Source: Thermoplasmata archaeon
Lineage (GTDB): Archaea; Thermoplasmatota; Thermoplasmata; UBA10834
Reading direction: 5' to 3'
NCBI GenBank assembly: GCA_014859835.1
Contig: JACZKW010000104.1
Location: forward strand, 51,608 to 115,607
DNA length: 64,000 nt
Part shown: piece by piece, positions 5,370-45,894 of the stretch
Layout: every line of letters begins with the position of its first letter
How positions within the stretch are numbered: position 1 is the stretch's first letter
Made by a program: the position numbers and the translations under genes
The notes under the pieces: generated by a model
What the model was told of the DNA's origin: nothing
Database searches by the model: none
Seen by the model: only the letters and a program-made list of their open reading frames with translations

Positions 5370-6593
5370 TCAGGCGAACATCGGGCCGGATTCCATCGCC
5401 TTCTGGTCATCCTCGTCGAGCACCTTGTTGATGGCCTTCTCGAAATCGACCATGGAGACAATGTCACGGCTCTCTCTTATGGCGAACATCCCGGCCTCTG
5501 TGCAGACGGCTTTGATGTCGGCACCTGTCGCACCATCAGACTTGGATGCCATCTCCTCGAGGTTGACCGACTCGTCGAGGTTCATACGTCGGCTGTGTAT
5601 CTTGAATATCGCGGCTCTCGCCTCGTAGTTCGGAATCGGTATCTCGATGATCCTGTCGAACCTTCCGGGTCTCAGCAAGGCCTCGTCAAGTATATCGGGG
5701 CGGTTGGTGGCACCTATGATCTTGACCTCACCCAATGGGTTGAAACCGTCGAGTTCGGCCAGAATCTGCATGAGTGTGCGTTGGACCTCGCGATCGCCGG
5801 AGGTTGCGAGCTCAAGCCTCTTAGCGCCCACGCTGTCCAGCTCATCTATGAACACGATGGACGGGGCCTTCTGCCTGGCGAGATCGAATAGTTCCCTCAC
5901 CAGTCTGGCACCCTCTCCGATGTATTTCTGCACCAACTCCGATCCGACGAACCGGATGAATGTGGCATTGGTCTGCTTCGCGACGGCCTTCGCCAGGAGC
6001 GTCTTACCAGTGCCCGGTGGACCGACTAGAAGCACGCCCTTCGGCGGGTCTATACCCACTTTCTTGTAAAGCTCCGGTCTGAGAAGTGGGTCTTCCACGG
6101 CTTCCCGTATCTCTATGATCTGGTCCTGCAAGCCTCCGATATCCTCGTAGACCGTATCCGGCTTCGCTATTATCTCGGCGCCGACTACGATGGGGTCCAA
6201 GGATGGGGGCAGAACGCCCATTACCGCAAGCGTCTGCTTGTTCAGAGCGACTCTGGCACCAGCTATCAACAAGTCGGATGATACGTAATCTGATGTGCTC
6301 ACAACGAAGTCTGGTCCGGTCGAACTCTTGACGACTACCCGGCCGTCAGCGAGTATGTCCTTGATCTGACCTATTATGAGTGGTGGGGTCTTCAATCGCT
6401 CAAGCTCGGCTTTGAGTCTCTTGAGTTCCTTCTGAAGGCGAATGAGCTCACCTTCAACGAACCTCTTCTCGCCTTCGCTTCTGCGAGCTTCCTCTACGAG
6501 TTCGAGGTTACGCTCCTCAAGGACCGCAATTCTCCTTTGTATTCCTTCAAACATCTCAGCGGATTGGTCCTGTTCCAATATGATGCACCCCAT
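5370..6593 (-). CDS. pan: proteasome-activating nucleotidase PAN (AAA+ ATPase)
   Basis: An N-terminal coiled coil and OB domain are followed by an AAA+ module ([19 protein letters not shown]-like box IVFIDELD, arginine finger). Confidence 0.9.
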
Positions 6594-8610: not shown

Positions 8611-10251
8611 ATGAAATTGATAGGCCAAACACCCATTTTCATATTGAAAGAAGGAACCAAGAGAGAGAAAGGAAAAGGCGCGCAGTTCAACAACATTTCT
8701 GCAGCCAGAGCAATCGCCGATACAGTCAGGAGCACATTGGGCCCGAGGGGCATGGACAAGATGCTCGTTGACAGCATGGGTGATGTGGTAATAACGAACG
8801 ATGGAGTGACTATCCTCAAGGAGATAGACATCGAGCACCCCGCGGCCAAGATGATCGTCGAGGTCGCCAAGACACAGGACGAGGAATGCGGGGACGGAAC
8901 CACGACCGCAGTCATCCTTGCCGGTGAACTCCTGAAGAAGGCTGAGGCACTCATTGAACAGAACATACACCCAACGGTCATATCCGGCGGGTACAGACTC
9001 GCGGCGCTGAAGGCGAGAGAGTTCCTTGATGAGATATCCATCAAGGTGGATTCCAAGGACAGGGACGTGCTCATCGACATCGCAAAGACAGCAATGATAT
9101 CCAAGAGCGTCGCCGGATCCAGGGAATTGCTGGCAAAGGTAGCATTCGATGCGGTCTCAGCTGTCGCTGAGAAGAACAGCGAGGGAGCATGGACGGTCGA
9201 TGAGGACGACATCCAAATCGTGAAGAAGCAGGGTGGCTCCACGGATGACACCACAATGATCGCAGGAATCATCGTCGACAAGGAAGCAGTTCACCCAGCG
9301 ATGCCGAAGAAGGTCGAGAAGGCGAAGATCGCGCTCGTCGATTCGGCGCTCGAAGTCAAGAAGACCGAGATAGACGCGAAGATCGAGATAACCGACCCGA
9401 GCCAGCTGCATGCGTTCCTCGATGAAGAGGAGAACATGCTAAAGAAGATGGTCGAGACCGTCAAGAAGTCCGGCGCGAACGTGCTGTTCTGCCAGAAGGG
9501 CATCGACGATCTCGCACAGCATTACCTGTCGAAGGCCGGAGTATACGCGGTCCGCAGGGTCAAGAAGAGCGATATGGAAAAGCTCGCCAAGGCCACAGGC
9601 GCGAACCTCGTGACCAAGCTCGACGACCTGAAGGCAGATGACCTCGGTGTCGCCAATATGGTCGAAGAGAAGAAGATCGCTGATGACAAGATGACCTTCG
9701 TCACCGGATGCAAGAACCCGAAGGCCGTATCGGTATTGATCAGGGGCGGCACGGAACACGTGATCGATGAGGTCGACAGGTCCCTGAACGATGCGATAAG
9801 CGTCGTATCGGTAGCATTCGAGGATGGAAAACTCGTTACTGGCGGAGGTTCCGCAGCAGCCGAGCTGGCGCTCAGGTTGAGAGACTTCGCGGCTACCGTT
9901 GGTGGCAGGGAACAGATCGCAATCGATGCTTTCGCTAGCGCTCTGGAAGTCATTCCGACAGCACTTGCGGAGAACGCTGGTCTCGACCCGATCGATGTAC
10001 TGATCGAGCTCAGACAGGCGCACAAGGCTGGGAAGAAGAATGCCGGCATCAACGTCTTCACGGGAAAGATCACAGACATGAAGAAGGAGAAGGTGCTTGA
10101 ACCGATTCGCGTCGGAAGACAGGCGATCAGCTCCGCGACAGACGCTGCCGTCATGATCCTGAGGATTGATGACGTCATAGCATCCAGGGGCGGTCCGAAG
10201 GGACCACCTGGCGCAGGCGGTCCTGGCGGAGACATGGGTGACTTCGAATAG
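8611..10251 (+). CDS. ths: thermosome subunit (group II chaperonin)
   Basis: It has [18 protein letters not shown] and GDGTTT motifs, is 546 aa long, and ends in a C-terminal [10 protein letters not shown] tail. Confidence 0.95.
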
Positions 10252-10958: not shown

Positions 10959-12839
10959 ATGGCAGAATCTAAGACCAAGGTCATAGGAATAGACCTGGGC
11001 ACGAGCAATTCGGCAGCTGCTGTGGTAGAGGGTGGCAGGCCGACGATAATACCGAGTGCAGAGGGAACCAGCTTGGGAGGCAAGGCGTTTCCGTCGTATG
11101 TCGCTTTCACGAAGGATGGGCAGATGCTGGTAGGCGAACCAGCCAGGAGGCAGGCGGTCTCCAACCCGGAAGGAACGATAATGACGATCAAGCGGAAGAT
11201 GGGGACGGACTACAAAACCAAGGTGCACGGAAAGGAGTACACGCCCCAACAGATATCCGCGTTCATACTGCAGAAGATAAAGCGCGATGCTGAAGCGTAC
11301 CTCGGCACAAAGGTCGAGAAGGCAGTCATCACCGTCCCGGCATACTTCAACGATAACCAGAGACAGGCGACCAAGGATGCTGGAATGATAGCTGGCCTCG
11401 ATGTGGTGAGGATAATCAACGAACCAACCGCGGCTGCCCTGGCATACGGGCTGGACAAGTCCGAAAAGGAACAGAAGATACTCGTCTTCGATCTGGGCGG
11501 CGGCACACTCGATGTCACCATAATGGAGTTCGGCGATGGAGTCTTCGAAGTCATATCCACGAGCGGTGACACCCAGCTGGGCGGTACCGACATGGACAAC
11601 ACGATGGTGGATTACATCGCCAAGGAGTTCAAGGCAGACTCCAGCATGGATATCACAAAGGACAAGATGGCGATGCAGAGGGTCAGAGAGGCGGCAGAGA
11701 AGGCAAAAATAGAGCTGTCCTCCACACTCGAGACAGAAATAAACCTCCCATATCTCAGCGCTGACTCTTCGGGGCCAAGGCACCTTACTATGAAGCTCAC
11801 AAGGGCGAAGCTGGAAGAGCTGGTCAAGCCAGTTGTGGATAAGTGCCGTGGACCGACTATGCAGGCGCTTGAGGATGGAAAGCTAAGTGCAGACAAGATA
11901 GACAAGGTCATATTGGTAGGCGGTCCAACGAGGATGCCGATCGTACATAGGTTCGTCGAGGGAGTCGTCGGACCCAAGATCGTGAGAGGTGTGGACCCGA
12001 TGGAATGCGTCGCCATGGGTGCTTCCATACAGGCAGGCATAATCGAGGGAAGTGTCACTGATATACTACTGCTCGATGTGACGCCTCTGTCATTGGGCGT
12101 CGAGACCCTCGGAGGAGTGTCCCACAAACTCATCGAAAGGAACACGACCATACCGACTAGGAAGAGTGAAGTCTTCTCCACAGCCGCGGACGGACAGACA
12201 AGCGTCGAGATCCATGTCTTGCAGGGAGAGAGACCGATGGCCGCGGATAATGTCACGCTTGGCAATTTCCACCTTATAGGAATACCTCCGGCCCCGAGGG
12301 GCTTGCCCCAGATCGAGGTCACCTTCGACATCGATGCCAATGGCATAATCGATGTCAGCGCGAAGGATCGAGGAACCGGCAAGGAGCAGAAGATAACTAT
12401 CACGGCCACAACGAAGCTCGGCAGGGAAGACATCGACAAGATGGTCAAGGACGCAGAGAGATTCGCGGACGAGGATCTCAAGCGTAAGGAGAAGGCGGAA
12501 CTGAGGAACAAGGCTGAGCAGAGGACATACGAGGTAACGCACATCCTGGAAGAGATGGGAGATAAGGTGCCACAGGACCTCAAGGAGAGCTTGACCAGAC
12601 TATCCGAAGAGGTCAAGACCGCCCTAGCAGGCGAAGATCTGGAAATCATCAAGCAGAAGCTGGAGGAGCTAGACAAGGCTCTGCTGGAGATCGGCAAGAA
12701 GGTCTATGAGACCGCCCAGCAGGCGGCATCCCAAGAGCCCCAGACGCCTCCACCCAGTGGAGACGAGCAATCAGGTGGCGGTGATGACGGTTATGTGGAC
12801 GCTGAGTACAAGATCGTCGACGATGATGACAAGAAGTGA
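10959..12839 (+). CDS. dnaK: chaperone DnaK (Hsp70)
   Basis: It has [19 protein letters not shown] and other Hsp70 signatures, and is 626 aa long. Confidence 0.97.
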
Positions 12840-12915
12840 CCCAAACCTCTTTTTCCTATTTCCTCATTCTCTCGAACCGAATCGACTGAGAATGTAATGA
12901 GACGGTGATGATGCG

Positions 12916-14070
12916 ATGGTCCAGAAGAGAGACTACTACGAGGTACTAGGGGTATCTCGAAACGCCGCGAAGGATGAAATCAAAAAGGCGTACAGAAAAC
13001 TGGCCATGAAGTATCATCCTGACACCAACAAGGAGGATCCAAAGCAGGCAGAGGAGAAGTTCAAGGAACTCTCTGAAGCCTACGAGGTCCTCGCAGACGA
13101 TGAGAAGAAGACCAGATACGACCAGTACGGACATGAAGGCGTCCAGAGCACATTCAGAGGCGGTGGCTTCGACTGGTCGGATTTCACGCACTTCGGGGAT
13201 ATCAGCGACATATTCGGTAATTTCTCAGGCTTTGGCGGGAGCATTTTCGATCAGTTCTTCGGCGGAGGGATGAGACGAACAGGCCCCGTCGAAGGTAGGT
13301 CTCTCAGATACGACATTGACATACCTCTTGAGGAAGCGGCGACTGGAATCGAGAAGGAGATCAGGGTGCCGCACAGCATCGCTTGCAAGACCTGTGGGGG
13401 TATCGGGGCCAAGAAGGAGGACGTCAAGACATGTCCGACCTGCAAGGGGGCGGGACAGGTTCAGAGAGCGCAAAAGCGCGGAAACACATCTTTTGTGACT
13501 ATCGGCAATTGTCCGACCTGCAGAGGGAGAGGAAACCAGATCACGAAGAACTGTCCAGATTGCCAGGGACATGGAGTTGTCCAGACCACATCGACCTTGA
13601 AGGTATCGATCCCGAAGGGTGCCGAAGAGGGCATGCGTCTTAGGATAAGAGGGGCTGGCGAGGCCGGCCCCAACGGAGGTCCGCCAGGGGACCTGTATAT
13701 CATAATCCATATCGACGAGCATTCCGTGTTCGCACGGGATGGAAGAGACCTATGGCTGGAGACACCGATCACTTTCACACAGGCGGCTCTGGGAGCACAG
13801 ATCGACGTGCCCACGCTCAATGGGACCGCGAGAGTTACGGTACCACCAGGAACCCAGACGGGCACCGTTTTCAGACTCAAAGGAAAGGGCGTGCCGGACC
13901 TGAGAGGCCACGGCGAGGGGGACGAATTCGTGAAGGTCACGGTCCAGATACCGACCAAGTTGACATCTGAACAGAAGGATCTCATGAAGCGACTGGGGGA
14001 CTCACTCGGTGATTATGGCCGAGGGGACACGAAGAAAAACAGATTCAGCAAGTTCGGTCGGAAGATATGA
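12916..14070 (+). CDS. dnaJ: chaperone DnaJ (Hsp40)
   Basis: A J domain (YHPD), a G/F-rich region and a 4x CxxCxGxG zinc finger are present. Confidence 0.95.
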
Positions 14071-39085: not shown

Positions 39086-39158
39086 TGGGCCCGTCGCGAT
39101 TTGAACACGAGTCACCAGCACCCCAAGCTGGAAGGATACCAAGCTACCCCACGGGCCC
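39086..39158 (-). tRNA. tRNA-Pro (anticodon GGG)
   Basis: The minus-strand sequence gggcccg-tg-gggt-agcttggt-atcc-t-t-ccagc-ttggggt-gctgg-tgac-tcgtg-ttcaaat-cgcga-cgggccc-a folds as a cloverleaf. It has a 7-bp acceptor stem, a 5-bp anticodon stem with U33-GGG-G37, and a T-loop TTCAAAT. No CCA is encoded. Confidence 0.8.
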
Positions 39159-41867: not shown

Positions 41868-42400
41868 AGGAGAGCGTCGACTATATCCTGAAGAGCATTC
41901 AGCAAACGCTCGAGAACGAGGTCGAGGAGACAGACAAGTTTGTAGATGCCATTATGGAATCACGCAGGATATTCATCTATGGTGTCGGCCGTTCCGGCCT
42001 GATAGCCAAGGCATTCGCGATAAGACTGGTTCAGATGGGGTTAGAAGTCTATTTTGTAGGGGAGACCATCACACCCATTGTCGAGGAAGGGAACCTGGTG
42101 ATAATCGTGTCGCACACAGGTGAGACGATGTCCGCCATCCAGACCGCGAATATCGTACGAAGGGTCGGGGCGAGGGTGATCACGATCACTGCCAATGCCC
42201 ACTCGAAGCTCGCGAGCGCATCCAATCTAGTCATGTTAATACATCCTCCGAAGGATGATGACAGGAAGACTCTCGCACCGCTTGGAACCCTTTTCGAGAA
42301 TGCCACCCTGATCTATCTCGATAGCATGGTCGCCAGGCTGATGGAGAAGCTCGGGCAGAGTGAGGGGTCTCTCAGGAAGCGGCATGCGATCTGGGTCTAG
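41864..42400 (+). CDS. 6-phospho-3-hexuloisomerase (SIS domain)
   Basis: It carries a SIS phosphosugar-binding motif (IFIYGVGRSGLIAKAFAIRL), is 178 aa long, and is typical of PHI/HxlB. Confidence 0.7.
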   Translation: MKESVDYILKSIQQTLENEVEETDKFVDAIMESRRIFIYGVGRSGLIAKAFAIRLVQMGLEVYFVGETITPIVEEGNLVIIVSHTGETMSAIQTANIVRRVGARVITITANAHSKLASASNLVMLIHPPKDDDRKTLAPLGTLFENATLIYLDSMVARLMEKLGQSEGSLRKRHAIWV

Positions 42401-43527
42401 ACACGGTCCATAATCTCGTCCGTTTCGAGATTATCCGCAGATTCAGTTTTTGATTTGATCCTCTGCTTCTTTCGGATGAGATAGAACGCCAGCACAGATA
42501 CCGTTGCGACCGCAATGAGCCCGACGAACGCTGGCAGATATTCCATTATCCAATCGCTGACCCCACCAACAAATCCCGATTCATCGATTCCGATGATAGT
42601 CTCGTCTTCAATGGAACATGTGTCATTGGAGATAAGGAGGGCGGAATGCAGCATCAGACCAGCGCCTGTCGTGTAACACGATGAGCCAAGGATATGATCA
42701 TATGACGATGAACCGTTGCTCATCAGTGCGGCTGTGCCCCACAGAAAATGTGCCTGGGAGGCGTTATCCTCCTTGGTGTACATAATGCGCTGGACCACGT
42801 CATCTGTCTGCCTGAGAGGTCTCGTATAGTTTGCACCGAGAAGAGTCTCATCGTCCCAGCCAGACAAGAGCGTCAGAACCTCATCGGATTGGAAATCATC
42901 CTCGGTCACCACAAACGAATTCGTAGTTCCTCCACCTTGCAGGAATCGCTCAAGTGCGATGTAATCCGCAGATGTGGAATTGGTGATCCGAATCGTCATG
43001 TTTACGCGCATTTCAGTCTTGCCAGACACTATATAGCTGCCCGTCGGGGCGGTATAGGTTACAGAGTTCTCAGTCAAGCAGAACCAGAAAGTGACATTCG
43101 CCCAGTTCTCAATGATGGCTGGACCCTCTCCAGATATGTTGTACACCGATGTCTCCGCAGACATGCTGAACATGGCGTATTCGCCCATATCGGGTGTGTG
43201 ATCCTCGATTATCGAGGAGAGGTGCCATGTAGCATGATTGGAGTCGAAGAACACTGTGCCAACGGCTTCGGATCTGCAAAAAACTCCATTGTCATCAGAG
43301 TCATTGAACATATGGATTCGAGGGAAACTAGCCTCGAACGTCGGCGAGAATGGATCATCCGTATGCCAGAATATGATTCGTGGCCAGTCATTGGTCACGG
43401 CAACAGAAAAAATGCCGGATATCATGCTCACCTTGGTCTCGTCGGCTGAGACATATAGAGTGTAGTCGCCAGCTCCTGATACGTTCATGGGGAGGGACGA
43501 TGATACTATGGCGATCACCGCGATCAT
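42397..43527 (-). CDS. secreted, C-terminally anchored surface (glyco)protein, hypothetical
   Basis: A signal/TM helix is followed by a ~300-aa domain with more than 10 N-x-S/T sequons, a C-terminal TM helix and an RKKQR tail. Confidence 0.4.
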   Translation of the reverse strand: MIAVIAIVSSSLPMNVSGAGDYTLYVSADETKVSMISGIFSVAVTNDWPRIIFWHTDDPFSPTFEASFPRIHMFNDSDDNGVFCRSEAVGTVFFDSNHATWHLSSIIEDHTPDMGEYAMFSMSAETSVYNISGEGPAIIENWANVTFWFCLTENSVTYTAPTGSYIVSGKTEMRVNMTIRITNSTSADYIALERFLQGGGTTNSFVVTEDDFQSDEVLTLLSGWDDETLLGANYTRPLRQTDDVVQRIMYTKEDNASQAHFLWGTAALMSNGSSSYDHILGSSCYTTGAGLMLHSALLISNDTCSIEDETIIGIDESGFVGGVSDWIMEYLPAFVGLIAVATVSVLAFYLIRKKQRIKSKTESADNLETDEIMDRV

Positions 43528-43635
43528 GCAGGCAAGTCGACACACATTCGTCACTCTACATCCCCGACTCCTCAGTCCATAACACAAATGAACCCGAAAA
43601 ACCTTTCCAGAGATATCCGCACAGGCTATATGCAT

Positions 43636-44280
43636 TCATCTTGTTCTGAGCCGGCGAGTGCGTTGACGATTCTCGACAGTCCCACTTTCACGAGCCGCGC
43701 AAGTCAGGGCAAACGGAACCTCGCGATACCCCTGGTTAGAGAGCTTGAATACCTTGATATCGGCATTTATCGGATCAACTACAAGCGCAGAATGGAAAGG
43801 CTGGTCGAACATGGTCTTTTGCGTGTAGAGGTCCGTCTTTGAAAGGAAACACGTGTGTCCAGGATGGGAATGGTACCAGCCGACTATGACATAATCGAAT
43901 CCTGATCGATCGAGTTCGCCGAAGAGTCGCGGAAGCGCCCTGTGGTCAAACCTGACCTTCGCGGTTGTGTTCTTCAGAGAGGTTGTGCCGATATCCCAGA
44001 CGATCGTGTACGTCTCACCTCTCCAAGAACACACCTCGCCCAACATGAACCCCATCACCTCGAGTCTCTTTGGAGCCGATTCCTCCGCTTGGGACACGAT
44101 CTTGCAGTTCGCAGCTTCGGACAAGTACACCTCAAAAGTTGGCCCAGATTCAAGGACTCGATGGAATACAGAAAGGGATTCCTCAGATAACCAATCATGA
44201 GGACCAATGCTGTCAACTGACGGCGGCGCCGTCTTTGAGATCTTGAGCTGGATCTCGCTAACGATCCTGGGTCTAGGCAT
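43636..44280 (-). CDS. JAMM/MPN+ metalloprotease (Rpn11-like deubiquitylase/isopeptidase)
   Basis: It has the complete JAMM motif E...H-S-H-P-x7-S-x2-D (GWYHSHPGHTCFLSKTD). Its start overlaps the E2 stop by 8 nt. Confidence 0.8.
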   Translation of the reverse strand: MPRPRIVSEIQLKISKTAPPSVDSIGPHDWLSEESLSVFHRVLESGPTFEVYLSEAANCKIVSQAEESAPKRLEVMGFMLGEVCSWRGETYTIVWDIGTTSLKNTTAKVRFDHRALPRLFGELDRSGFDYVIVGWYHSHPGHTCFLSKTDLYTQKTMFDQPFHSALVVDPINADIKVFKLSNQGYREVPFALTCAARESGTVENRQRTRRLRTR

Positions 44281-44794
44281 CGGAACCCCCTACGATCCTG
44301 ATTCTGCGGTCCGTCTGATCCATCACCGTAGGAGGCTGATATCTCATACGATTGAAGTATGCAGCGGCCCGAGTACATGTGTCGCACCCGAACGGGTTTC
44401 TAGGATTCGGATTAACCAGAAGCGACTCGATGCCCCTTATGAATGTGGCCAAGGTCGAGCTGAAATCCCATTTCTCCAGCAATCTCGTACATACATAACC
44501 GCCGTCCTCGGGAGGCATTATGTTCGGATGGAATATGGGAGTCTGCCACTTGACGATCGGTTTCTCGACTGGATACTCCTCACTTATCAGAATCGCGATT
44601 TTGTGGACGAACCTGTGCACGATCTTGTTCTCCTCCCATGTAGGGCCTGGCACGCGGAGCATGTGCACGTTGATCAGGATGGGGAAGGAGGTAAGGGTCG
44701 GGTCAGAGACGGTGATATGGTGTCTGAGCTCACGCTGACATATCTCTATCTCGTTTTTCAAACGCTTTCTGAGCACATCCACCGGAAGAGACAT
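44273..44794 (-). CDS. ubiquitin-conjugating enzyme E2-like protein (UBC fold)
   Basis: It has an N-terminal helix (RLKNEI), the HPN motif (IFHPNI), the catalytic Cys context (GGYVCTRLL...W) and LLVNPNPRNP, which together form the canonical UBC signature. Confidence 0.8.
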   Translation of the reverse strand: MSLPVDVLRKRLKNEIEICQRELRHHITVSDPTLTSFPILINVHMLRVPGPTWEENKIVHRFVHKIAILISEEYPVEKPIVKWQTPIFHPNIMPPEDGGYVCTRLLEKWDFSSTLATFIRGIESLLVNPNPRNPFGCDTCTRAAAYFNRMRYQPPTVMDQTDRRIRIVGGSDA

Positions 44795-44799
44795 CCCGA

Positions 44800-44988
44800 C
44801 TATCCGCCTTCAGGATCTGGAATGAGTTCCAGCACATCTTCGGCAATTATCCCGGAATCCTTTATCGAGGAACCACCGCGAAGAACCTTCTTGCCTTTCC
44901 TTAGGACATATGCGCCCATGTCCTTGTTCCAAAAGGTGGCGGCACTCTCGATGATCTCATCGACGGTATTGTCACCCTCCAGCTCCAT
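44800..44988 (-). CDS. ubiquitin-like beta-grasp protein with a C-terminal Gly-Gly
   Basis: ...FWNKDMGAYVLRKGKKVLRGGSSIKDSGIIAEDVLELIPDPEGG-stop aligns with ubiquitin residues ~25-76, including the terminal GG. The in-frame upstream stretch to 45048 (AIFLTFRLKVKNAETGAAVE) supplies the missing beta1-beta2 hairpin but contains no ATG, GTG or TTG. Confidence 0.6.
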   Translation of the reverse strand: MELEGDNTVDEIIESAATFWNKDMGAYVLRKGKKVLRGGSSIKDSGIIAEDVLELIPDPEGG

Positions 44989-45111
44989 CTCGACTGCAGC
45001 ACCGGTCTCTGCATTCTTAACTTTGAGTCTGAAAGTCAGAAAGATCGCCTATACGACTGACGGCTGTTGACATTATATCGTTTTCGGATACCTGTAGCAA
45101 CACCGGAGGCC

Positions 45112-45894
45112 TCAGTGATTCGGACAAAGCGGATCGATATCGAATTCCAGCTCTTCTGAGACATTCCTCTGACCGTCGTAGAAGAAGGCATTTGACAGCA
45201 TCATATCAGCCCTACCGGATACGAACTTCAGGCACTCCCTGACCATGATAGCCGATATGACACTCGTAGTCGTGATCTCGGCTGGAAGTCGAGGTTCATG
45301 GAATACCACATCCTTCCCAGTACAGCTGAATCGAAGGTTCGCAACCTTCGCATGTGATCGGTTCATGCCGCATTGGATGCATGCGCCATTCGGGGGATTG
45401 GCAACGAAGACTCGGCCAACGAACCCCTCCATTCCGCCATCGATCAGTGTCTTCCCGAATCGATATGATCGTGAATTCACATGGAGCCGAGTAGGGATAT
45501 TGTCAAGACAACCAAGTATGATGTCGTGGACCCTATACAGCCCTTCATCCAATTCCTCGATCATGGATGAGACCGATTCGACATTGGCATGCTCAGAGAG
45601 GGCATTCATTCCACGGGCGACCACTTCGGCTTTGGGACTCCTTCTGGAAACGTCCTCTCGTGAGAAGAAGAGACATCTGTTCAGGTTCGAGCCCATGACG
45701 TGGTCCATATCGACAACTGTCACATAACGAAAGCCTGAGAGGACCAGGTTCTTCCCGACCTCGTTTCCCAAAGCACCTGCGCCAACCATCAGAACCTTGG
45801 TTCTGAACACCGCGTCGAGGTCAAGCCATCCTATCCGACGAGCTCTGTCGAAGGGCTCGTCATCTACCGCGCCTATCCTAAGCTGTTCCTCCAT
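45112..45894 (-). CDS. E1-like ubiquitin-activating enzyme (ThiF/MoeB/HesA family)
   Basis: It has a nucleotide-binding GxGxxG (VLMVGAGALGNEV), DxDxVxxSNLNR (VVDMDHVMGSNLNRC) and CxxC zinc/catalytic Cys motifs. It heads the operon. Confidence 0.8.
   Translation of the reverse strand: MEEQLRIGAVDDEPFDRARRIGWLDLDAVFRTKVLMVGAGALGNEVGKNLVLSGFRYVTVVDMDHVMGSNLNRCLFFSREDVSRRSPKAEVVARGMNALSEHANVESVSSMIEELDEGLYRVHDIILGCLDNIPTRLHVNSRSYRFGKTLIDGGMEGFVGRVFVANPPNGACIQCGMNRSHAKVANLRFSCTGKDVVFHEPRLPAEITTTSVISAIMVRECLKFVSGRADMMLSNAFFYDGQRNVSEELEFDIDPLCPNH

Follow-up and report, generated by a model that had tools for sequence, protein, structure and literature searches.

The 64,000-nucleotide stretch of Thermoplasmata archaeon DNA analysed in this work (contig JACZKW010000104.1; hereafter, the window) carries on its minus strand four consecutive genes that are likely to encode a functional, chromosomally fixed ubiquitin-like protein-conjugation system of the Thermoplasmata. 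Read in the direction of transcription, they specify an E1-like activating enzyme of 260 amino acids (aa; 45112-45894), a ubiquitin-like modifier (Ubl) of 79 aa (44800-45039), a UBC-fold E2 conjugating enzyme of 173 aa (44273-44794) and an Rpn11-like JAMM/MPN+ metalloprotease of 214 aa (43636-44280). A first-pass annotation, made from the letters alone, had proposed an E1, Ubl, E2 and JAMM cassette at this locus, and the open reading frame (ORF) listing places all four genes at the coordinates claimed. As had been stated, 5 nucleotides (nt) separate the stop codon of Ubl from the start of E2; the reported overlap between the E2 and JAMM genes also exists and spans 8 nt (ATGCCTAG), although its orientation was reversed: the JAMM gene begins before the end of E2.

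A scan for relatives of the E2, with one genome per species, returned at least 162 such stretches, 80 of which are listed here (L001-L080); all 80 come from metagenome-assembled genomes. The four genes are adjacent and in the order E1-Ubl-E2-JAMM in 61 of these 80 loci, Ubl-E2-JAMM is found in at least 74, and the E1 gene is displaced by 2-4 kb in another four; an arrangement that recurs in this manner is far beyond chance. Within the nearer clade, median identity to the window proteins reaches 82.5% for the Ubl, 75% for the E2, 65% for the E1 and 54% for the JAMM protease, which makes the Ubl the most conserved of the four proteins and the one under the strongest purifying selection. The cassette lies outside every curated defence or equivalog family of PADLOC and NCBIfam, scans against which gave sub-threshold, generic E1 and JAB matches and none for the E2 or the Ubl.

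The E1 matches Pfam ThiF with 149.8 bits over residues 20-251, and this is the only domain found in it. The ThiF/MoeB-type assignment of the first-pass annotation, with its nucleotide loop (GAGALG) and Asp motif (DMDHVMGSNLNR), is borne out, and the protein amounts to a single adenylation domain devoid of a ubiquitin-fold domain, an inactive adenylation domain, a second Rossmann domain or an inserted Cys domain. Nonetheless, its closest solved relatives are the catalytic subunits of eukaryotic E1s (UBA3, 6e-23; Uba1, 2e-21; SAE2, 1e-20; 84-77 bits), whereas ThiF (1e-13) and MoeB (1e-12) rank lower, at 54-51 bits. Against NCBIfam equivalogs the E1 scores 61.6 for UbaA (cut-off 450) and 98 for ThiF (cut-off 275), and it is also far below the cut-off for MoeB. 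Across 60 orthologues the invariant positions comprise G38xG40AxG43 of the nucleotide loop, the D62, D64, S69-N70-L71 and R73 residues, a C172xxC175 pair with C257xxH260, and C191 in the RFSCTG segment of the crossover loop. On these patterns, C172xxC175 and C257xxH260 probably form a zinc site and C191 is the probable thioester cysteine; the chain terminates within 3 residues of the last putative zinc ligand.

The mechanical ORF call for the Ubl gene starts at an ATG at 44988 and yields a protein of 62 aa that lacks the first beta-hairpin of the fold, and yet the in-frame sequence 5' of this call (...LTFRLKVKNAETGAAVE-MELEG...) is kept in every relative. Among 75 loci, the start codon located seven positions before K/R-N-A-E-T-G is ATG in 38, CTG in 22, TTG in 13 and GTG in two, and the window and six further loci (L001, L005, L016, L021, L022 and L025) offer no ATG, GTG or TTG in frame ahead of the conserved beta1 strand. 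Pairwise comparison of the window and these six loci gives 163 synonymous versus 49 non-synonymous differences in codons 2-20, a pattern shared with the remaining Ubl codons (456 versus 172) and reversed in the 19 codons upstream of the Ubl start that served as control (14 versus 272). The synonymous excess in codons 2-20 and its reversal in the control argue that the N-terminal strand is translated; the full Ubl would hence comprise 79 aa, not 62, and the CTG at 45039-45037 is its most likely start. A Shine-Dalgarno-like motif (AGGCGATC, 45043-45050, minus strand) stands upstream of this codon, with GGTGGT or GGTGAT at the same place in the orthologues; the full 8-nt motif of the window lies 3 nt from the start, and in the orthologues 5-6 nt separate the GGTG core from it. 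Gene callers do produce the 79-aa Ubl in most relatives, but standard callers will shorten or miss it where CTG is the start, and in public annotation the protein is always a 'hypothetical protein' with no Pfam domain. Since the Ubl goes unannotated, and is mis-called here at its CTG start, automated surveys will under-count systems of this kind.

The ubiquitin-like identity of the Ubl rests on its predicted fold together with profile-profile alignment, because neither BLASTP nor a profile search of PDB sequences reaches significance. The AlphaFold2 (AF2) model, computed from a shallow alignment whose members share at least 78% identity, has a predicted local distance difference test (pLDDT) score of 90.8 and a beta-beta-alpha-beta-beta-3(10)-beta topology. 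Foldseek matches it best to SUMO1, ubiquitin, Hub1, ISG15 and Caldiarchaeum subterraneum ubiquitin, with TM-scores of 0.8-0.87, and neither ThiS nor MoaD is present among the top 50 matches; the assignment of the small protein to the ThiS/MoaD sulfur carriers, which the first-pass annotation had named as the outcome that would contradict it, was thus not obtained, and the Ubl models as a beta-grasp of the ubiquitin/SUMO type. At the sequence level, hhalign aligns the family profile with ubiquitin residues 7-76 (E 1e-4, 25% identity over 68 columns), reaching the terminal Gly-Gly. Conversely, BLASTP against human ubiquitin returns no match, ubiquitin hits of the profile among PDB sequences are non-significant (E 0.013-1), the Pfam ubiquitin model scores 17-19.5 bits on orthologous Ubls, under its 25.4 cut-off, and the window Ubl has no Pfam match at threshold. 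Sequence similarity to ubiquitin is therefore best regarded as remote and the match of the predicted fold as strong, so that the beta-grasp ending in diglycine claimed at first holds, while the accompanying claim of a residue-for-residue alignment of its C-terminal half with ubiquitin was overstated.

The window Ubl ends in IPDPEGG followed by the stop codon at 44800, and G78-G79 are invariant among its orthologues. With the stop placed directly after the diglycine, the modifier of the window is encoded in mature form. On the other hand, in the Methanomassiliicoccales and other distant relatives (L039-L080) the Gly-Gly is followed by 1-10 residues (GGNR, GGA, GGH, GGQ, GGI, GGRN or GGRRLRREAGRR; e.g. 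L062:7759-8001 and L053:5171-5437). The lineage is thus split between groups that encode a precursor Ubl and the window's clade, which encodes a ready-made modifier. By analogy with C. subterraneum pro-ubiquitin, which is processed by its Rpn11 homologue, the extended Ubls would need to be trimmed before use.

The assignment of the 173-aa protein to the UBC fold, which a non-UBC result would have overturned, agrees with Pfam, with PDB sequence searches and with structure prediction. It scores 51.9 bits with Pfam UQ_con, whose cut-off is 27. Searching PDB sequences yields 237 distinct E2s of eukaryotic type at E<=0.01, headed by clam E2-C (2e2c, 1.4e-12), to whose catalytic cysteine C102 is aligned. 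The protein displays the HPN motif (H89-P90-N91), C102 and the LLVNPNPRNP loop; H89, P90, N91, C102 and P129-N130 of the NPNP loop are invariant in 42 orthologues. Its AF2 model (pLDDT 86.5) retrieves eukaryotic UBC E2s exclusively among the top 50 Foldseek matches (probability 1.0, TM-score 0.53-0.74), and the E2s of many relatives are already labelled 'ubiquitin-conjugating enzyme E2' in public databases. The model leaves a disordered tail at residues 159-173, and this tail (44273-44330) bears the motif P/R-[RK]-I-[IV]-(G), which is conserved and reads RRIRIVGG in the window and PRIVG in consensus; it may act as a docking peptide. The JAMM N-terminus encoded at 44262-44280, MPRPRIV, resembles this tail motif, and a related PRII/PKII motif is found in an out-group E2 (P0295) and in the 65-aa protein next to it.

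The fourth protein matches Pfam JAB with 43.1 bits (cut-off 22.5) and possesses the full E-HxH-S-D zinc site ascribed to it initially, with E74, H137, H139, S147 and D150 invariant in 69 orthologues. Its nearest solved relative is the Rpn11 homologue of C. subterraneum (6fjv/6fnn, 2e-15), after which come Rpn11 of yeast and human and then CSN5, and it scores only 29.8 bits with the haloarchaeal desampylase model, which has a cut-off of 130.

The tight junctions had been taken as a sign of a single transcription unit. Ubl, E2 and JAMM are indeed tightly packed, but a 72-nt spacer separates E1 from Ubl and holds a conserved element resembling an archaeal B recognition element (BRE) and TATA box, so that one transcription unit for all four genes is not assured. 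The element, delimited by alignment of orthologous spacers (45072-45098, minus strand), is composed of GCTACAGGTA, a BRE-like CGAAAAC motif and a TATA-like GATATAAT motif, in that order. The consensus of 35 orthologous spacers (those of L002-L036) reads GCTACAGGTAt.CGAAAaCgaTaTAA ... GTCCAGT ... GGTGGT ... start, with a (T/A)TATAA TATA-like core, GTCCAGT some 25 nt downstream of it and GGTGGT thereafter. A scan with a sigma-70 pattern also marks a TATAAT ending at 45072; overall, however, the sigma-70 and terminator scan was no different from that of shuffled sequence. From its composition and position, the element would serve as a BRE/TATA promoter dedicated to Ubl-E2-JAMM, a notion that fits the loci in which E1 is unlinked. 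The 5' half of the element, GCTACAGGTA, is conserved beyond what a BRE needs and could be the binding site of a regulator.

The euryarchaeal housekeeping context put forward for the cassette is supported by the relatives and by the neighbouring genes. The 80 listed genomes are labelled as Thermoplasmata, Thermoplasmatota, Thermoplasmatales, Methanomassiliicoccales or Methanomassiliicoccus, or carry generic archaeal or euryarchaeal labels, and the E2 of one of them (L001) is 99% identical to that of the window; cultured Methanomassiliicoccus also appears to carry the cassette. The system had been described as rare and eukaryote-like. The UBC-type E2 cassette is real, but with at least 162 species it is not rare in this lineage, and it shows neither the E1 ubiquitin-fold domain nor, by pattern search of the window and the 80 loci, a RING ligase. 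The most widely kept neighbours are an AP-endonuclease-like TIM-barrel gene, a SIS-domain gene and the L18e-L13-S9 ribosomal genes, each retained in about 50-60 of the 80 loci. The same arrangement of Ubl-E2-JAB, AP_endonuc_2 and L18e is repeated on the contig of a distant E2 (P0260), which belongs to a cluster with members named Candidatus Sysuiplasma and Thermoplasmatota. In its remainder the window encodes Hef, TruD, PAN, a thermosome subunit, DnaK/DnaJ, PGK and aminoacyl-tRNA synthetases; its base composition is uniform and the cassette matches its surroundings. Neither integrases nor transposases nor other defence genes occur near the cassette among the genes scanned, and no thiG or moaE, the neighbours that had been named as evidence against a conjugation role, is found among the neighbours. 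The fixed position, the synteny in a distant lineage, the housekeeping surroundings and the uniform base composition speak for a core function passed on vertically and against a mobile island.

Three further candidates at the locus were discarded as genes or as components of the system. A 287-aa ORF on the plus strand (44207-45070) is an antisense shadow of E2 and Ubl and recurs in relatives only as such. The 412-aa protein encoded downstream of JAMM (42397-43635, minus strand) and the M29 peptidase encoded upstream of E1 are linked to the cassette only in L001-L037, and both linkages are lost in the Methanomassiliicoccales. The 412-aa protein, for which Pfam has no match, probably carries a signal peptide starting at Met37 and is anchored in the membrane by its C-terminus; its gene directly abuts the JAMM stop codon (TGA-ATG). 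Elsewhere in the window lie a PAN-type AAA ATPase gene (AAA plus proteasomal OB domain; 5370-6593, minus strand), from which it follows that the organism has an ATPase that could feed tagged proteins to the proteasome, and, on the plus strand, genes for a thermosome subunit (8611-10251) and DnaK-DnaJ (10959-14070). ARAGORN predicts a tRNA-Pro(GGG) at 39086-39158 (minus strand), at odds with Rfam, which returns no match in the window at gathering thresholds, the tRNA family included.

Beyond the canonical cassette, a profile search with the E2 against 1.84 billion representatives gave 29 matches at E<=1e-30, 105 at E<=1e-10 and 3974 at E<=1e-3, and some of them display altered architectures. 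In P0252 (L081:259-1008) the Ubl and E2 are fused in one 249-aa protein (...PDPTGG-AN-LPEDLL...), which would require cleavage after the Gly-Gly, as eukaryotic ubiquitin fusion proteins do; the sequence stems from a single read-set assembly and may reflect an assembly or sequencing error. Another five proteins of about 225-232 aa (P0279, at L082:6001-6696, P0267, P0272, P0283 and P0294) carry an N-terminal region of some 75 aa without a terminal Gly-Gly, ahead of a UEV-like E2 domain that keeps HPN and has lost the catalytic cysteine. The neighbours of P0279 encode a Ras/Arf-like small GTPase, a DUF835 protein and a large beta-propeller protein, and no E1 or JAB gene is nearby. Fusions of E2 with JAMM occur in two forms. 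P0245 (682 aa) keeps the E2 cysteine and has a degenerate JAMM HxH (HSAP) followed by a C-terminal zinc ribbon, whereas in P0259 (534 aa) the E2 cysteine is replaced and the JAMM site is intact, followed by a beta-propeller-like tail. P0276 is a tandem E2, and the out-group P0295, an E2 relative outside the family, has unrelated surroundings in which Ubl, E1 and JAB are absent.

From the computational evidence on folds, catalytic motifs, conservation, gene linkage and vertical inheritance we infer each chemical step of the following scheme. The 79-aa Ubl would be made mature, with a free Gly-Gly, by CTG-started translation of a transcript that probably arises from its own promoter. The E1 would act as a homodimer, probably, as ThiF, MoeB and Uba5 do, given that it consists of a single adenylation domain; it would adenylate Gly79 with ATP and then take the Ubl onto Cys191 of the crossover loop as a thioester. 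The Ubl would be handed to Cys102 of the E2, beside the HPN motif, and from there to lysines of target proteins, either directly, without an E3, as in the bacterial Bil system, or with the help of an unlinked ligase. Finally, the JAMM protease would remove the tag and, in the sister lineages with 1-10 residues after the Gly-Gly, also mature the precursor. The residues expected for each of these steps are invariant across 42-69 orthologues: the loop, Asp, Arg, zinc-ligand and C191 residues of the E1, HPN and C102 of the E2, and E-HxH-S-D of the JAMM protease. As to the role of the system, we favour a housekeeping or regulatory one, possibly linked to the proteasome, over an antiviral one, because the cassette keeps a fixed place beside the AP-endonuclease-like, SIS and L18e-L13-S9 genes, matches its surroundings in composition and yields no defence match for its E2 or Ubl.

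Several observations weigh against this interpretation. The linkage of the E1 is not constant, as in seven of the 80 loci Ubl-E2-JAMM stand without an E1 gene inside 8 kb, and the E1 is devoid of a ubiquitin-fold domain, the part that recruits the E2 in systems of the Caldiarchaeum/Asgard type. The position of C102 in the HPN pocket rests on sequence alignment, and of the five AF2 models computed for the E2 a single one has a pLDDT above 72. The searched literature holds no experiment on any member of the family. Six-frame translations of the 64-kb window and of the 80 loci with their +/-8 kb flanks contain no match to a regular expression for the RING consensus, a pattern of limited sensitivity, in a search that did not extend to whole genomes or to U-box, HECT and RBR ligases, and hence no E3 was found. 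The latter result agrees with the first-pass annotation, which had recognised no RING E3, and leads to the idea that the cassette belongs to a complete E1-E2-E3 system, with the gene for its RING or other ligase lying at another place in the genome. A small RING protein does accompany the Rpn11-like JAMM in C. subterraneum and the Asgard archaea (PMC6043591, PMC5654768), and the E2 retains the HPN and NPNP loop motifs of E3-dependent eukaryotic E2s; moreover, the search covered the window and locus flanks, not whole genomes. Yet the pattern is missing around the cassette in all 80 species, clustering of the 80 neighbourhoods reveals no further conserved small gene, and Ub/E1/E2 operons of the JAMM-3 type have been described in PMC6043591, which reports RING proteins resembling E3s for C. 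subterraneum and the Asgard archaea only. An E3 encoded elsewhere thus seems rather unlikely to us.

The set of functions assembled here (Ubl, E2, JAB and E1, with no E3) is also identical to that of the antiviral Bil operons, and Bil provides further parallels in an E1 without a ubiquitin-fold domain and in Ubl precursors that extend past the conserved Gly (PMC10557695). Together with the weak PADLOC matches of the E1 to CBASS Cap2 E1-E2 models (<=46 bits), this raises the prospect that the targets of the cassette are proteins of invading viruses, as the phage tail fibre is for BilABCD, and not those of the host. However, the E2 is of the canonical HPN…Cys kind and matches UQ_con, whereas the Bil E2 is of the CEHH type, and PADLOC has no match for either E2 or Ubl. 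Bil is sparse and found in defence islands, while the cassette is present in at least 162 species, deep-branching relatives included, fixed beside ribosomal genes and with no integrase, transposase or defence gene nearby among the genes scanned; its Ubl is nearly invariant, and Bil Ubls are structurally diverse. An antiviral function of this kind is, in our estimate, improbable. Even less credible is the proposal that the Ubl is a sulfur carrier of the ThiS/MoaD/SAMP type and that the E1 acts solely in thiamine, molybdopterin or tRNA thiolation chemistry. It can draw on the single-domain ThiF-family architecture of the E1, its MoeB-like size and its crossover-loop cysteine, located where ThiF and MoeB have theirs, as well as on a faint ThiS match (13 bits) in one orthologous Ubl. 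Nonetheless, the E1 falls far under the NCBIfam cut-offs for ThiF, MoeB and UbaA and stands nearer to the catalytic subunits of eukaryotic E1s, the model of the Ubl resembles ubiquitin and SUMO while ThiS and MoaD are missing from the Foldseek top 50, and no thiG, moaE or similar gene is found among the conserved neighbours. Sulfur transfer, moreover, has no use for the two further proteins of the operon, the conserved catalytic E2 and the Rpn11-like protease. We regard the sulfur-carrier proposal as very improbable, and retain the interpretation of the cassette as a protein-conjugation system.

Ubiquitin signalling is a eukaryotic hallmark, and its prokaryotic roots have been rebuilt from few systems, namely the haloarchaeal small archaeal modifier proteins (SAMPs), Caldiarchaeum, Bil and CBASS. 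The family analysed here adds to these the case of a UBC-type E2, a tag of ubiquitin/SUMO fold and an Rpn11-like protease as a stable part of the core genome of a euryarchaeal class, one that includes methanogens of the human gut and wetlands. Its E1 is as simple as an activating enzyme can be. Should the proposed scheme hold true, it would constitute the smallest natural E1-E2 cascade with eukaryote-type parts, and a model for how an E2 can be recruited without a ubiquitin-fold domain and targets chosen without an E3.

The best known archaeal counterparts are the operons of C. subterraneum and the Asgard archaea, which encode ubiquitin, E1, E2, a small RING E3 and an Rpn11 homologue (PMC3082918, PMC5654768, PMC6043591). 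The cassette has in common with them a ubiquitin-fold modifier with Gly-Gly, a UBC E2 with HPN and Cys, an Rpn11-like JAMM with an intact site and an E1 adenylation domain nearer to eukaryotic E1s than to ThiF or MoeB. It also shares with C. subterraneum, by way of its sister lineages, the synthesis of precursors with residues beyond the Gly-Gly. The extended Ubls of the Methanomassiliicoccales mirror C. subterraneum pro-ubiquitin, which is cleaved by the Rpn11 homologue of that organism (PMC5654768, PMC6043591), and the nearest solved relative of the JAMM protease is the very enzyme that performs this cleavage. As opposed to these operons, the cassette has no RING gene in or near it by pattern search, its 260-aa E1 lacks the C-terminal ubiquitin-fold domain of their multidomain E1, and its host is euryarchaeal (Thermoplasmatota) instead of a TACK or Asgard archaeon; furthermore, its JAMM gene is co-directional with E2 and translationally coupled to it instead of being divergently transcribed. 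The label of a minimal relative without an E3 therefore suits the cassette better than that of a full eukaryote-like system.

In this respect, the cassette belongs to an already catalogued kind of E3-less archaeal Ub/E1/E2/JAB operon that is widespread in this lineage and partly annotated. According to the PMC5654768 supplement, 'Cluster III' archaeal clusters comprise Ub, E1, E2 and JAB genes without an E3, with an E1 that lacks the ubiquitin-like C-terminal domain, and PMC6043591 gives the name 'JAMM-3' to Rpn11-like proteases found in Ub/E1/E2 operons. The gene content of the cassette and its E1 devoid of a ubiquitin-fold domain match both descriptions and its protease, like the JAMM-3 group, is nearer to Rpn11 and CSN5 than to desampylases; Thermoplasmata sequences may be among the members of either, although the extractable text of that supplement does not name the class. 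Cluster III E2s reportedly fall with E2-like proteins of bacteria, unlike the cassette E2, which best matches eukaryotic UBC proteins. Other work has placed a Thermoplasmatota E2 on a deep branch of the archaeal E2/UEV clade (bioRxiv 10.1101/2023.07.25.550441) and has listed WP_019177758 of M. luminyensis as an Rpn11 orthologue candidate (Fort 2015, PMC4453063). Beyond such passing mentions, we found no paper in the literature that describes or tests the Thermoplasmata operon. What is newly established here is the 79-aa Ubl with its most likely CTG start, the promoter-like element, the lineage-wide fixed position, the division between mature and precursor Ubls and the fusion variants.

The comparison with bacterial and haloarchaeal systems delimits the cassette from the other side. 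Bil operons have the gene order Ubl-E2-DUB-E1, where DUB denotes the deubiquitinase, with a multidomain IAD+AAD+CYS E1 (inactive and active adenylation domains plus a Cys domain) and a diverged CEHH E2, and are sparse and located in defence islands (PMC10557695). They coincide with the cassette in the four functions, the lack of an E3, the absence of a ubiquitin-fold domain in the E1, a Ubl nearer to ubiquitin and SUMO than to ThiS and MoaD, and a JAB protease that both matures and removes the Ubl, a function predicted also for the cassette protease. They differ from it in that the cassette has its E1 gene first, a single-domain E1, a canonical HPN E2 and a vertically inherited housekeeping locus. 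With the SAMP/UbaA/HvJAMM1 system of Haloferax volcanii the cassette has in common a beta-grasp modifier ending in Gly-Gly, a single-domain E1 of ThiF type and a JAMM protease to undo the modification. Sampylation involves no E2, and SAMPs are ThiS/MoaD-type proteins that also serve as sulfur carriers; the cassette, in contrast, has a conserved catalytic E2, an E1 and a JAMM far under the UbaA and desampylase cut-offs, and a Ubl of the ubiquitin/SUMO type. It is tempting, if decidedly tentative, to picture the cassette as a vertically inherited, E3-independent 'proto-ubiquitin' system, a halfway stage on the path from sampylation, with its E1 alone, to the E1-E2-RING systems found in Aigarchaeota, Asgard archaea and eukaryotes. 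Were this so, the canonical HPN-Cys E2 and the Rpn11-type protease would predate the split of the Thermoplasmatota from TACK and Asgard archaea instead of having arisen in the latter, and cultured Methanomassiliicoccus would open to study, in a living organism, a stage of ubiquitin evolution that lies between sampylation and the RING-bearing systems.

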